Shown here: positions 51,864 through 59,067 of the stretch, piece after piece
Layout: every line of letters starts with the position of its first letter
Position numbering within the stretch: position 1 is the stretch's first letter
The notes under the pieces: model-generated
What the model was told of the DNA's origin: nothing
Databases searched by the model: none
The model's input: the letters and a program-made list of their open reading frames with translations, nothing else
Assembly: GCA_965368975.1 (NCBI GenBank)
Contig: CBDUPA010000006.1
Span: forward strand, 160,001-224,000
Origin: an uncultured bacterium
Lineage (GTDB): Bacteria; Acidobacteriota; Thermoanaerobaculia; Multivoradales; JAHZIX01
DNA: 64,000 nt
Direction: 5' to 3'
Position numbers and translations under genes: made by a program

Positions 51864-54560
51864 TCAGCCGCTCGGATCTCCCGGCACCTGCAACTCCGGA
51901 GCTATGACCCCGTCCGGATGCACCACGGGCTCCTCGCTGGATTCTCCAGCCGGGTCGGGGGCGCCGGTGCTGGGCACGGGGAGCAAGGGCCCCTCGGCGA
52001 TCCGGTGCAGCAGCCAGTAGGCGAGGTCCAGGTTCTGGCGCTGGCGGTCGGTGGGGTCGCCGGTGAAACGGCTGCCCAGTTCGCGCTTGCTGAGCGTCAG
52101 GGAGTCGGTGAAGACACCCACGACACCGCTGCCGAAGCGGATCTCGCTGTACACGGGGATGCCGTTGCCGTCGGCGAGTAGGGTGTGCCCACCGTGGACG
52201 GCGAGTACCGGGCGCGATACGACGAAGCTGGTCTCGTCCTGCGCCACGTCTGCATCTTCGGAGGGTGCATCTTCGGCAGCAGCGTCTTCGGCAGGCGCAT
52301 CTTCGGACTCTGCAGCTTCAGACTCTGCTGCCTCGCTGTGCTCCAAGAGGTTCACCTCGACGCGCTCCAGCCTGACCTCGACGCCCAGGCCGAAGACGGC
52401 TAGCAGCTGCTCAGTGGCGGTGCCTCGGCTCAGCAGGCCGTCGAGGATCAGCAGACCGCCGCCGCCGCGCACGAAGGCTTGCAGCTGGGCTGATTGGCTC
52501 GGCGTTGGGGTGCGTGTCGGGTGTGCCAGCACCAGCATGTCGCGTCCACCAAGCCGATCGTCTCCCTGGCTGAGTGCCGCCGACAAGTCTTCGCCGACCC
52601 GCGGCAGGTAGTCGAGGCGCTGGGCGGCGACCAGCAGGCTGTCCAGGGCGACCAGGTCGTCGTCGCTGGCGAGGGTCAGGACGTGCGGCAAGTAGATGTC
52701 GGAGAGTTCGGTGTCGAAGACGACCTGCCGCGGTGGCGTGACGCCGTCGCGGTACGGGGGCAGGTCGAGGGTGGGGCCGGCGAGAGCCAGGACCACAGTA
52801 CCGGTGGCGAGGCCCAGCGCCAGGAAGCTGGCGGTTGCCAGCGTTGCACGACCTCGGTCGATCAGGCCGAGAGTCGCGACAGCGGCGAGCAGCAACAGGG
52901 TTGCCAGGGTGGGCAGGTGCCGGCTCGTCCACGCTGGCCGGCGGGCCAAGTACTCGACCGTCGCCACGGCGACTTCTCGGCGGCCGGGGAAGTAGAGAGA
53001 GAAGTTCGACAGCGGCGTGCTGTCGCTGAAGGCGGCGACGCGACCGGCGCCGTGGGCCAACGTCGCGTGCTGGGCGAAGAAGCCGAAGTCGTCCGGAGGG
53101 TCCAGGTGCAGGTTGCCGAAGAAGCCGGGGCGTGAGTAGTCCGCGGCTTCGGCGCCCAGGCCGTAGCCGAGCATCGGGATGCGGGCGCGCAGGGGCACGC
53201 GTAGGGTGCACGAGGTTTCGAATTCGAAGGCGCCAACGACGCTGGCGATCGGGTGGGGTAGCCAGCGGGGTGCGCGCCACTGCGACTGGGCTTCGCTCAC
53301 CTGAGCGAAGGTGTCGTCGGTGGCGAAGGAGAGACCGAAGCGCTGGGCCACGGGGTTGAGGTAGGTGGTCATGCCGAACAGGTTGGTGTGATCCCCGATC
53401 AGGAACAGCCCGCCGCCGCCGCGCACAAAGGCCTCGACGGCCTCGATCTCCGACGCCGCGAAGGGCTCGGTCGGGGTCTTGAGGATCAGCACGTCGGTGT
53501 CGGCGAGCGCTGCCGCGGTCAACGGGGCCTGCTGCCAGCGGTTCACCTCGTAGTGCTGTTCCAGCAAGCGGTAGAAAGAGCTGTAGGAATAGGAGATGAG
53601 CTGGCCGTAGGTTTCGGTGTCGAAGGGGGTGTCGGTAGGTTCCCAGGTGCCGTGACTGTCGTCGAAGAGCACGCGGACGTTGCCGTCCGGCCCCCCGAGG
53701 CGGTCACCGACAGGCACCCAACCGAGCGCTAGCACCCAGGCGATTCCCAGCACGGCGGCGGCGGCGCGGCGTCCCCGCGGGAACGCTGGTTCCGTTGGGC
53801 TCGTGGGCTGGAAGCGGCAGCGCGCGGGCAGCAGGCAGGCGGCGGGGAGCAGGGTGAGCAGGGTCCACCAGGGGCTGGTGACGAGTCCTTGGTCGGGCAG
53901 GTCGACCCAAGCCGCAGTGATCAGCAGTAGGCGGAGAAAGGCAGCGCCGAGCAGCGCCGCGGCCCAGCGTGCCAGGAACCTCCCTGGTCGGCGCAGCGGA
54001 ACCAGTAGCGCCACGCCGACACCGGCGGCCAGGGCCAGCAGCAGCGGAAGAGCGGCCAGCCGGCTCAGGGACGGCAGCAGCTCGAACACCGTGCCGCCGC
54101 TGTGGACGACCACCAAGCCCTGCTCGGCGACGGCGTTCAGACCCAGCAAGCGCAGCGCGCCGGCCAGCGTCGAGGCCAGGCCGGGCACTTCGCGCCAGCG
54201 TGCCAGCAGGCTGACCAGAGGCGTCAGTGCGAGCAGCTGCGCGAGTGCTATCGCCAGCACCAAGCCACCGCGATCGGCCAGGCGCTGCCGGCCGGTGGGC
54301 ACGGAGAGGCCCGAGGGTACGGAGAAGCCCGAGGGTACAGCCGCCGGCCTGCGAGCCCAGGCAGCCAGGGCGAGTCCAAGCAGTACTAGCAGGCTGCCGG
54401 TGAGGTACGCGGGAGTCTCGAGCTGGCCGCTGATCAGTTGCCAGCCGCAGGCGGCCAGCAGGGCGCCGCAGAGTAGCTGCCGTGGCGCCAGGGCCGGTAC
54501 CACGGCTGCAGGTGCTTCGATTTCGGGGACCTGCGGCGACGGAGCGGGGAGCGGGCTCAT
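51864..54560 (-). CDS. Multi-TM membrane protein with two GldG/DUF4350-like domains
   Basis: About 9 N-terminal TMs; VLFDDSHG.WE, DVLILKTP....EI.AV..FV.GGGGLFLIGDHTN; second FV.GGGGLLI. True start MSPLPA (ATGA overlap). Confidence 0.75.
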   Translation of the reverse strand: MSPLPAPSPQVPEIEAPAAVVPALAPRQLLCGALLAACGWQLISGQLETPAYLTGSLLVLLGLALAAWARRPAAVPSGFSVPSGLSVPTGRQRLADRGGLVLAIALAQLLALTPLVSLLARWREVPGLASTLAGALRLLGLNAVAEQGLVVVHSGGTVFELLPSLSRLAALPLLLALAAGVGVALLVPLRRPGRFLARWAAALLGAAFLRLLLITAAWVDLPDQGLVTSPWWTLLTLLPAACLLPARCRFQPTSPTEPAFPRGRRAAAAVLGIAWVLALGWVPVGDRLGGPDGNVRVLFDDSHGTWEPTDTPFDTETYGQLISYSYSSFYRLLEQHYEVNRWQQAPLTAAALADTDVLILKTPTEPFAASEIEAVEAFVRGGGGLFLIGDHTNLFGMTTYLNPVAQRFGLSFATDDTFAQVSEAQSQWRAPRWLPHPIASVVGAFEFETSCTLRVPLRARIPMLGYGLGAEAADYSRPGFFGNLHLDPPDDFGFFAQHATLAHGAGRVAAFSDSTPLSNFSLYFPGRREVAVATVEYLARRPAWTSRHLPTLATLLLLAAVATLGLIDRGRATLATASFLALGLATGTVVLALAGPTLDLPPYRDGVTPPRQVVFDTELSDIYLPHVLTLASDDDLVALDSLLVAAQRLDYLPRVGEDLSAALSQGDDRLGGRDMLVLAHPTRTPTPSQSAQLQAFVRGGGGLLILDGLLSRGTATEQLLAVFGLGVEVRLERVEVNLLEHSEAAESEAAESEDAPAEDAAAEDAPSEDADVAQDETSFVVSRPVLAVHGGHTLLADGNGIPVYSEIRFGSGVVGVFTDSLTLSKRELGSRFTGDPTDRQRQNLDLAYWLLHRIAEGPLLPVPSTGAPDPAGESSEEPVVHPDGVIAPELQVPGDPSG

Positions 54561-58182: not shown

Positions 58183-59067
58183 TCATCCGCCGTGACCGTT
58201 GGCCCTGATGCGCTCGTGGACCATGTCCGTCAGGTCCCTGTGCGCCTTGGGTAAGGCAAGTTCGAAGACATCGTCTTCGAGCTGAACGCCGAATTGCGTC
58301 CGCATATCCTGCTCGACGTAGAGATACGCGGGTTCACGCTGATCGCCCTCGGGGAGAGCTTCCTGGACCTCCATCTGGAGCTTGACCAGCAGCAGTTCGC
58401 GTGCGTCGATCCAGAACTGGCAGTTGCGGATCAAGCTGCCGTCGTTGGCCCGCACGTCTTCCAGGGACTGCAAGACGTACACGGGTTCGCCGTCGAGAGT
58501 GGCCGCGTAGGCACGGAACCTGGCGTTGAGGAAGACGTCATCGAACTCCAGGTGCCGGAGCGGACTACGGTACTTCGCCGGCAGGGCTTCGGGCAGGGCG
58601 TGGTGGCGAATCACAAAGGACTCGACGACCGGTTGCCGGCCCTCGCCCTGCTTGTCGAGGAAGCCGCTCTCGTGCAGCACTTTGGTTTCCTGACCAGAAT
58701 GTACCCAGACGAAGCGGCGGCTATCCGGTAGATCGAGATCGGCGTTGCCACGGAAGGCTTCCTGGACGGTGTCCGACTCGACCGCCTCGACGCGGGCCTG
58801 GTCACCTTTGAGATGGGCTACGTAATCACCGTCGGTGGTGACATCCGCCTGGTCCAGGCTGCTCACGGTCACCGTCTGATCGATGTCGACCTGCCGCGGA
58901 TCGTCGAAGAAGCTTTGGTAACGCTCGTTCACCGCCTGCATGATGCGGTGCGCGTCCAACCCTTCGTCGGCCTGCGCCACGGGGACGCCGAGCGCTCCGA
59001 ACAGCAATGTGGCCATGGCGAGGATGGTGGCGAAGGTGCCGATCCTCGAGACTCTGGCTGTCTGCAT
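58183..59067 (-). CDS. Exported LolA-like/outer-membrane-sorting-fold protein
   Basis: Signal peptide VAQA|DE; G..VYVL, FWIDARELLLVK, L.DDVF.L.LP pattern; RBS AGGAGG. Confidence 0.6.
   Translation of the reverse strand: MQTARVSRIGTFATILAMATLLFGALGVPVAQADEGLDAHRIMQAVNERYQSFFDDPRQVDIDQTVTVSSLDQADVTTDGDYVAHLKGDQARVEAVESDTVQEAFRGNADLDLPDSRRFVWVHSGQETKVLHESGFLDKQGEGRQPVVESFVIRHHALPEALPAKYRSPLRHLEFDDVFLNARFRAYAATLDGEPVYVLQSLEDVRANDGSLIRNCQFWIDARELLLVKLQMEVQEALPEGDQREPAYLYVEQDMRTQFGVQLEDDVFELALPKAHRDLTDMVHERIRANGHGG

Follow-up and report, generated by a model that had tools for sequence, protein, structure and literature searches.

A conserved pair of DUF4350-family membrane proteins and its putative tagged, cysteine-periodic cargo in bacteria and archaea

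Several described systems share single traits with the locus reported here. GldG (ABC_transp_aux, PF09822; GldAFG) is anchored in the membrane by one transmembrane (TM) helix at each end, exposes a large GIFT/GATase1-like domain outside the cytoplasm, and works with an ABC-2 (ATP-binding cassette, ABC) permease and an ATPase. In the exosortase/PEP-CTERM and archaeosortase/PGF-CTERM systems (PF09721), cargo proteins carry a short motif beside a TM helix at the C-terminus, and are paired with a dedicated polytopic membrane protein that has a catalytic cysteine. The CefA/CefB families (NF038108, NF038107) are marked by a cysteine at each fifth residue in a small-residue context, while IFT52 and OST48/Wbp1, with their GIFT domains, and site-1 protease (S1P), with its GATase-like fourth domain, provide non-catalytic protein-binding modules of larger complexes. 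Finally, the association of arCOG01314 (DUF4350) with MoxR and vWA/DUF58 proteins has been predicted to be a secretion or membrane-remodelling system, and the part of the source available to us ties its DUF4350 extracytoplasmic domain to surface proteins and leaves its function unknown (Makarova et al. 2015, PMC5898192). Here we analyse a window of 64,000 nucleotides, the whole stretch under study, from an uncultured acidobacterial genome (assembly GCA_965368975.1, contig CBDUPA010000006.1, positions 160,001 to 224,000), in which four genes, A to D, are the local form of a widespread conserved module in bacteria and archaea. This module brings together two paralogous membrane proteins (C and D) and an exported, cysteine-rich neighbour (here B), which we regard as their putative cargo.

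According to the list of open reading frames (ORFs) of the window, the four genes lie in the same direction on the minus strand, in the order A, B, C, D:

58183..59067, minus strand: gene A, an exported protein of 294 amino acids (aa), called from its ORF and a strong AAGGAGG ribosome-binding site (RBS)
57317..58162, minus strand: gene B, the putative tagged cysteine-ladder cargo, 281 aa, counted from the RBS-backed ATG behind GGAGAAAG
54557..57295, minus strand: gene C, the C-type partner, a polytopic membrane protein of 912 aa (from an uncertain TTG start) that carries a DUF4350/GIFT domain
51864..54560, minus strand: gene D, the D-type partner, a polytopic membrane protein of 898 aa and the better conserved of the two

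The tight packing reported in a preliminary description of this DNA was confirmed, with 20 bp between A and B, 21 bp between B and C, and an ATGA overlap of C and D, and a sequence scan of the A-D unit found no sigma-70-like promoter and no intrinsic terminator within it. The start of C was set at the first TTG listed, and its length of 912 aa is therefore uncertain; B has an alternative in-frame ATG upstream, at 58186, which would overlap the stop of A.

The module was traced by a pattern scan of one genome per species (185,579 species) with two D-type peptide patterns, which returned 268 encoded relatives; the locus counts given throughout rest on the best 80 of these 268, a pattern-biased sample. 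Going by record titles, these 80 loci represent Myxococcota, Alpha- and Gammaproteobacteria, Planctomycetota, Verrucomicrobia, Lentisphaerae, Acidobacteriota, Desulfobacterota, Chloroflexota, Bacillota, Bacteroidota, Ignavibacteriota, Thermotogae and several candidate phyla, as well as from many Thermoplasmatota archaea. D itself has 43 database relatives, the best of which, other than itself, are about 50% identical, and one of which is named from Polyangium. Where a locus holds two large paralogs, assigned by their similarity to C versus D, the C-type gene is followed by the D-type gene without exception (59 of 59 loci). In this fixed order the two paralogs behave as an obligate pair, and it implies that the C/D duplication predates the spread across phyla and that gene order was kept thereafter. 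None of A, B, C and D was found in 40 sampled genomes of the same order, which yielded only weak GIFT-domain matches and other-frame artefacts, the B-like matches among them being other-frame repeats within unrelated genes. This absence fits a patchy cassette that was probably spread horizontally. The other neighbours of the window, namely the transglutaminase-like gene, the 387-aa and 783-aa ORFs, GT4, the AsnB-like gene, Wzx and DUF1684, each recur beside the pair in none of the 80 loci, and we therefore place the ends of the unit at A and D.

The composition of the conserved unit differs in part from what had been anticipated. In the preliminary description the four genes formed one system around a protein with S-x-C-x-x repeats; however, an ORF with cysteine at every fifth residue (SxC-type) adjoins the pair in only 14 of the 80 loci and an A homolog in 5, so that most homologs of the pair occur without an SxC-repeat gene, an outcome that the preliminary description had named as refuting its proposal, and the part of the proposal that stands is the pair with an exported, cysteine-repeat neighbour. 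Other loci have, in the same position, cysteine-rich ORFs with a cysteine every 4 residues (TCAATC..., up to 88 cysteines), with T-C-D units each 6-7 residues (up to 92 cysteines), or with units of 13-14 residues. The C-termini of these putative cargo proteins differ, ending in a PD40 propeller, an SLH domain, a sorting domain of the type IX secretion system (T9SS) or an FN3 domain, and their common N-terminus consists of a basic start, a hydrophobic helix, 8-20 further residues, and an S-P-L-F/Y motif with an amphipathic helix. The serine and proline of this motif are at least 90% conserved in an alignment of 37 N-termini. As judged from these alignments, the conserved trait is a class of cysteine-periodic proteins of several periods that are united by the N-terminal S-P-L-F/Y tag.

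The link between tag and pair was recovered with two detectors. A hidden Markov model (HMM) of the tag found 35 ORFs in 31 loci at E <=1e-3, and matches in 37 of the 80 loci at a score of at least 12 bits. An independent rule, demanding a hydrophobic stretch, the motif and at least 8 cysteines downstream, was passed by 37 of 8,014 locus ORFs versus 4 of 56,243 ORFs in the genome of the window, one of the four being B. By HMM or rule, the tag is present in 43 of the 80 loci, and in 25 of the 31 bacterial loci that hold both paralogs with at least 2 kb on each side, mostly 0-2 kb from the pair and on the same strand. Four whole genomes (4.3-12.7 Mb) each gave a single tag match at E <=0.01, located beside the pair; since these pair-side ORFs were in the model, the result is informative for the absence of other matches. 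Among the 56,243 ORFs of its own genome, B alone matches the tag strongly, and B alone has a regular Cys-every-fifth array.

The coupling of tag and cysteine array was also seen in sequences that had not been chosen by locus. A profile restricted to the N-terminus, with no cysteine region, gave 90 matches among 1.84 billion representative proteins, and 69 of the 77 matches of at least 120 aa contained at least 8 cysteines (59 had at least 5% cysteine); tag and cysteine arrays are therefore coupled regardless of locus choice. In metagenomes, a single-protein scan relating tag to pair found no relative, and a degenerate DNA pattern for the tag hit two contigs, one too short to judge and one (n = 1) with D-type and C-type matches 4-5 kb downstream of the tag on the same strand.

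Protein B contains exactly 19 successive S-x-C-x-x pentads, the number first reported, and 21 cysteines in total. Its regions are as follows:

58094..58159, minus strand: B residues 2-23, N-terminal hydrophobic helix (signal peptide or signal anchor), from the AlphaFold2 (AF2) helix at 2-23 and alignments
58004..58054, minus strand: B residues 37-53, the S-P-L-F tag helix (SPLFDRQLADKLAEM...), AF2 helix at 38-53
57638..57922, minus strand: B residues 81-175, the 19 S-x-C-x-x pentads, cysteine at every fifth residue
57332..57577, minus strand: B residues 196-277, FN3/Ig-like beta-sandwich, AF2 per-residue confidence (pLDDT) >90

The AF2 model of B is of mixed confidence (overall pLDDT 63), and the top Foldseek match of the beta-sandwich is an FN3 domain (E 8.9e-4). 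A pentapeptide-repeat beta-helix was considered for the SxCxG array on the basis of our own reading of how the motif fits the consensus, and gained no support, as AF2 gave no fold in residues 69-191 (pLDDT <50 there). In Pfam and NCBIfam, B matches nothing beyond a sub-threshold hit to NF038108, which is taken up below.

C and D are paralogs of about 900 aa, as originally proposed, with 29% identity across D 318-720 (E 4e-17). The gathering cut-off of DUF4350 (PF14258; 30.4 bits) is passed by D (57.4 bits) and C (34.7 bits), and the family is matched by all 30 members scanned; these 30 also match ABC_transp_aux (PF09822; cut-off 34.7 bits), which D passes at 40.6 bits and C, at 27.1 bits, does not reach. 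D additionally passes the IFT52_GIFT cut-off. Both proteins carry the GGGGL..(L/I)GDHT motif to which the preliminary description drew attention, and a conservation check of its G-D-H-T, in 60 C-type and 60 D-type sequences, gave at least 90%; as a candidate catalytic site it is conserved yet unproven. An AF2 model of D, built from a 30-sequence alignment, is of good quality (pLDDT 86; predicted TM-score, pTM, 0.85) and consists of a TM bundle, an alpha/beta domain, a TM hairpin and a second alpha/beta domain, with 7+2 TM helices in all (a 7-helix N-terminal bundle and the hairpin). The features of the pair are:

53721..54485, minus strand: D residues 26-280, N-terminal bundle of TM helices that includes a small three-stranded sheet (142-161), from the AF2 model
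52941..53675, minus strand: D residues 296-540, predicted extracytoplasmic GIFT/GATase1-like domain, from fold matches
52779..52931, minus strand: D residues 544-594, TM hairpin that separates the two outer domains, AF2 helices 544-566 and 573-594
51993..52727, minus strand: D residues 612-856, second alpha/beta domain with the GGGGL motif, from the AF2 model
55910..55921, minus strand: C residues 459-462, the G-D-H-T motif

The fold searches covered D 291-605 well, and the TM bundle and second domain barely. Within the well-covered part, D 296-540 resembles IFT52 (Z 21.5), the C-terminal domain of S1P (Z 18.9), OST48 (Z 17.7) and ThuA-like proteins (Z 16.5). A TM bundle with two GATase-like domains had been suggested for each paralog; the D model upholds the bundle and a first, GIFT/GATase1-like domain, whereas the second domain shows a weak second DUF4350 stretch, and its GATase-like character was not confirmed by the fold searches, which barely tested it. 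In the D-type alignment, G700 and G701 of this second domain are invariant. Conservation is far higher in D-type than in C-type proteins (60 sequences each), and in the D-type proteins it lines a pocket composed of D300, W306, E307, K361, E371, GDHTN 389-393, H436, T449-S450-C451 and D513-S514-T515. The eukaryotic proteins of similar fold are soluble or single-pass, and have neither the GDHTN/SDST/T-S-C pocket nor the TM bundle; the fold that they have in common with D shows no common function, and the part of a paper on S1P-SPRING available to us held no usable parallel to the module. The arCOG01314 system differs as well. Its MoxR AAA+ ATPase and vWA/DUF58 proteins were neither detected by Pfam in nine scanned genes nor recurrent in the 80 loci, and the 7+2 TM helices of D contrast with the single C-terminal TM helix given for that system in the accessible part of its description. 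That part describes no cysteine-repeat cargo and no N-terminal tag, and the supplementary tables of the paper may list the Thermoplasmatota pair (PMC5898192).

From these observations, we consider it moderately probable that C and D form a heteromer by which tagged cargo is captured outside the membrane and then matured or sorted. The roles named in the preliminary description, namely export, folding, modification or anchoring of the Cys-rich protein, are candidate alternatives. The module would have three parts: at least one Sec-exported tagged cargo, a C-type protein and a D-type protein. C and D would form a heteromer in the cytoplasmic membrane, with the GIFT and second alpha/beta domains on its outer face; the outward orientation of both globular domains of D is suggested by arginine-rich loops between the helices of the AF2 model. 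The complex would capture newly exported cargo through its membrane-proximal N-terminal tag and hold it while the cysteine region matures, most likely by thiol chemistry (disulfide laddering or cross-linking), for which the conserved D-type pocket, with GDHTN, H436, the single conserved C451 and SDST, is the candidate site. Cargo would finally be released to a lineage-specific surface attachment, and A may be an extra periplasmic helper of the clade to which the window belongs, dedicated to SxC-type cargo. We place the putative C/D step between export and final anchoring because the cargo has its own Sec-type signal and variable anchoring C-termini, including a T9SS tail, and is conserved at its N-terminus only. 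The T9SS tail acts after periplasmic folding.

Several points weigh against this reading. Binding, processing and modification of the cargo by the pair are steps that we infer, and the outward topology depends on our own reading of loop charges in the AF2 model. The 80 loci are a biased sample, because they were picked as the best of 268 through two D-type peptide patterns, and their ORFs were called from stop to stop in six frames, without a gene caller. AF2 leaves the cysteine region of B (69-191) without a confident fold (pLDDT <50). Both tag detectors fail in 6 of the 31 well-flanked bacterial loci; candidates could be picked by eye in four of these (L018, L026, L037 and L071), and in L033 and L043 not even by eye, the whole genome behind L033 being without a tag match. 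The tag rule is met by none of 5 well-flanked archaeal loci (2 of 20 archaeal loci overall), which hold only weakly scoring small SPL[FY] proteins with 2-3 cysteines. Furthermore, most D-type proteins have a histidine in the TM bundle (D position 123; 50 of 60 sequences) and T-W-E-K-L-G near the small sheet (D 119-172 region), whereas the window and L011-L016, the clade that holds A and SxC cargo, replace them by W-R/Q/K-E-x-P (W-R-E-V-P in the window) and P-S-L-S-R-L-A.

Other explanations of the locus were weighed against the same evidence. The TM bundles of C and D might be cysteine-less relatives of exosortases and archaeosortases that sort proteins by an N-terminal signal (TM helix plus SPLF), in a mirror image of PEP-CTERM, and that anchor the cargo or hand it over with no chemical modification, which we regard as unlikely. 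In hhalign comparisons, the D bundle (58 sequences) aligned co-linearly with 24 PF09721 exosortases across 148 columns (D 74-222 against model positions 73-225; P 0.0014), the conserved R210 of D being aligned with the exosortase arginine, and the C bundle reached P 0.036 on a Cys-Ser-Gly helix, while controls were higher, both for reversed queries (P 0.13 and 0.61) and for ABC-2 permeases (P 0.29 and 0.34). In this family such weak scores are to be expected, since even the D and C bundles match one another only at P 1e-4. However, the D bundle matches exosortases at an hhalign probability of no more than 17%, P was 0.074 with a narrower exosortase set and thus no better than control, neither C nor D matches PF09721 in Pfam, and no solved exosortase structure appears among the matches of the fold searches, which barely tested the TM bundle. 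No column of either bundle conserves a cysteine (none with at least 10 of 60 in D-type, and a single column with 13 of 60 in C-type proteins), and transpeptidase chemistry is thereby excluded; of the catalytic Cys, Arg and His of exosortases, the Arg alone has an aligned counterpart (R210 of D). Unlike exosortases and archaeosortases, the module would use an N-terminal rather than a C-terminal signal, and it has GIFT domains fused to the bundle and two paralogs. A wider claim, possible in our view though doubtful, is that C and D are a cysteine-less exosortase-like and GIFT heteromer at the heart of a new sorting and maturation system of Bacteria and Archaea, which would read the N-terminal tag (signal helix and S-P-L-F/Y helix) as a mirror of PEP-CTERM/PGF-CTERM and build cross-linked cysteine-ladder surface stalks or fibres.

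The PF09822 matches of D and of the 30 family members would also be consistent with C and D serving an ABC transporter as its GldG-like auxiliary or permease components, with the ATPase gene located elsewhere and the cysteine-rich protein as a secreted substrate or a co-regulated passenger, and ABC ATPase ORFs do lie immediately downstream of the pair at L040:11422-12378 and L041:4134-5102. This is improbable, given that the cassette and its immediate flanks contain no ATPase or ABC-2 permease, that the ATPase cluster seen in 11 of the 80 loci is a generic P-loop cluster and mostly non-adjacent, and that the cargo bears its own Sec-type signal peptide. The TM bundles scored against ABC2_membrane_2 like reversed controls (the P values of 0.29 and 0.34 above), and their identification as an ABC-2 permease was rejected. 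The module is further distinguished from GldG by its 7-helix bundle, TM hairpin, second domain, obligate paralog pair and tagged cysteine-rich partner. We give a similarly low probability to B as an extracytoplasmic thiol or metal sponge with C/D as a sensor or metal-handling complex. The extreme cysteine density and the lack of a predicted fold in the cysteine region would suit such a role, and a Geobacter DUF4350 protein is down-regulated under cobalt, according to the part of the report available to us (PMC7726332); but the cargo carries surface-anchoring or structural domains (T9SS tail, SLH, FN3, propeller), no metal-transport or sensor family was found by Pfam, NCBIfam or gene clustering in C, D or the conserved neighbourhood, and the conserved tag argues for recognition of the cargo protein itself. 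Lastly, B could be a precursor of the CefA type, a ribosomally synthesised and post-translationally modified peptide (RiPP) matured by a radical S-adenosylmethionine (SAM) enzyme, with C and D as unrelated neighbours. B does match NF038108 ('Cys-every-fifth RiPP peptide CefA') weakly (17.2 bits, E 0.0036), as do its relatives at L011 (21.2 bits) and L031 (16.8 bits), yet the match of B lies under the cut-off of 30 bits and covers the repeat only. The genome has no CefB, the top NF038107 matches being on other contigs and reaching 142 bits against a cut-off of 600; no radical-SAM cluster recurs across the 80 loci; and B, with its 281 aa, signal peptide, N-terminal tag and folded C-terminal domain, is a large exported protein. 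A literature search on Cys-every-fifth proteins and CefA/CefB found no paper, and we consider this reading of B close to refuted.

Capture and maturation or sorting of tagged cargo by C and D would not correspond to any named pathway, in agreement with the preliminary description, which could match the locus to none: Pfam, NCBIfam and literature searches gave no such match, the tag and the TM bundle both lie outside all Pfam and NCBIfam models, and the literature searches found no paper on the module. Its domains are catalogued already; the module itself is apparently undescribed. If the capture reading is correct, the module would be a conserved machine of the cell envelope, absent from the family libraries and literature searched, whose cargo bears a defined tag, and the many membrane proteins filed as 'DUF4350/GldG family' would gain a first functional partner. 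The tag would be a new recognition signal at the N-terminus, open to searches of any genome, and the reading would account for a puzzling class of exported proteins in which as many as 92 cysteines stand at fixed intervals, and which are found in aerobes, strict anaerobes and archaea alike. The rule of tag plus pair opens the question to direct testing in cultured hosts such as Sagittula salina and Polyangium.

Protein A is an accessory confined to the clade of the window. Its homologs occur in 5 of the 80 loci only (L011, L012, L013, L015 and L016), always adjoining B-type genes, and three of these loci (L012, L015 and L016) hold tandem copies of the A-B unit. A had been called LolA-like, a label that the searches did not sustain: A matches no family above cut-off in Pfam or NCBIfam and no PDB sequence, with phmmer and a profile search of PDB returning chance rows only; a Pfam scan of 8 A homologs at E up to 5 gave nothing relevant; a profile of 8 A sequences matched nothing in Pfam, NCBIfam or PDB; and hhalign of the A profile with a weakly LolA_like neighbour from L075 gave a probability of 0.3%. 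Only the language-model neighbours of A point in that direction, carrying DUF2092, MucB_RseB, DUF1571 or TP_0789-like domains, which we take to be members of the LolA clan, and the LolA-like fold is kept as a lead only. The region of the A gene (58000-58999) has a G+C content of 0.63, compared with 0.67-0.72 in the remaining cassette and flanks.

Some putative cargo loci have features of their own. In Thermoplasmatota (L053, L054, L068, L083, L089, L029, L074 and L023/L024), small ORFs adjoining the pair encode a signal peptide followed by (E/K)SPL(F/Y)xxRT, 2-3 cysteines and, in some, a C-terminal hydrophobic segment; these may be the archaeal form of the cargo. In Exilibacterium tricleocarpae (L037:4292-8326), a Cys-every-fifth array and a TPLF motif lie inside a stop-to-stop frame of 1,345 residues whose front resembles YD/RHS repeats, and which may be a fusion or two genes sharing one frame. 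In loci of the Planctomycetota-Verrucomicrobiota-Chlamydiota (PVC) group (L075:13946-15208, L075:5453-7153; L032:5211-7127), the cargo is flanked by LolA_like (24.7 bits, cut-off 30), FecR-domain and TPR proteins, which hints at lineage-specific accessories and sigma-factor control.

Around the cassette, three minus-strand ORFs lie upstream of A: 59265-60620, of 451 aa, with a weak transglutaminase-core match and a hydrophobic C-terminal tail; 60461-61624, of 387 aa, which overlaps it; and 61628-64000, encoding a protein of at least 783 aa without a Pfam family. On the other side, a polysaccharide gene set on the plus strand (47035-51861) converges with D, its last gene stopping 2 bp from the stop of D; it includes a Wzx-like flippase, a GT4 glycosyltransferase and an asparagine-synthase-type amidotransferase that is nearest to the XrtA/PEP-CTERM amidotransferase (523.6 bits, below the cut-off of 816.9). 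Elsewhere in the genomes of the order, a short exosortase-family ORF (~180-230 aa) with a G-C-N-G motif is present in 19 of 21, including the genome of the window (G000:C3:414019-414471; L099-L112). Also on the plus strand of the window, two paralogous ORFs of 641 aa (31348-33273 and 34077-36002) each carry a protease-associated (PA) domain at the same position.

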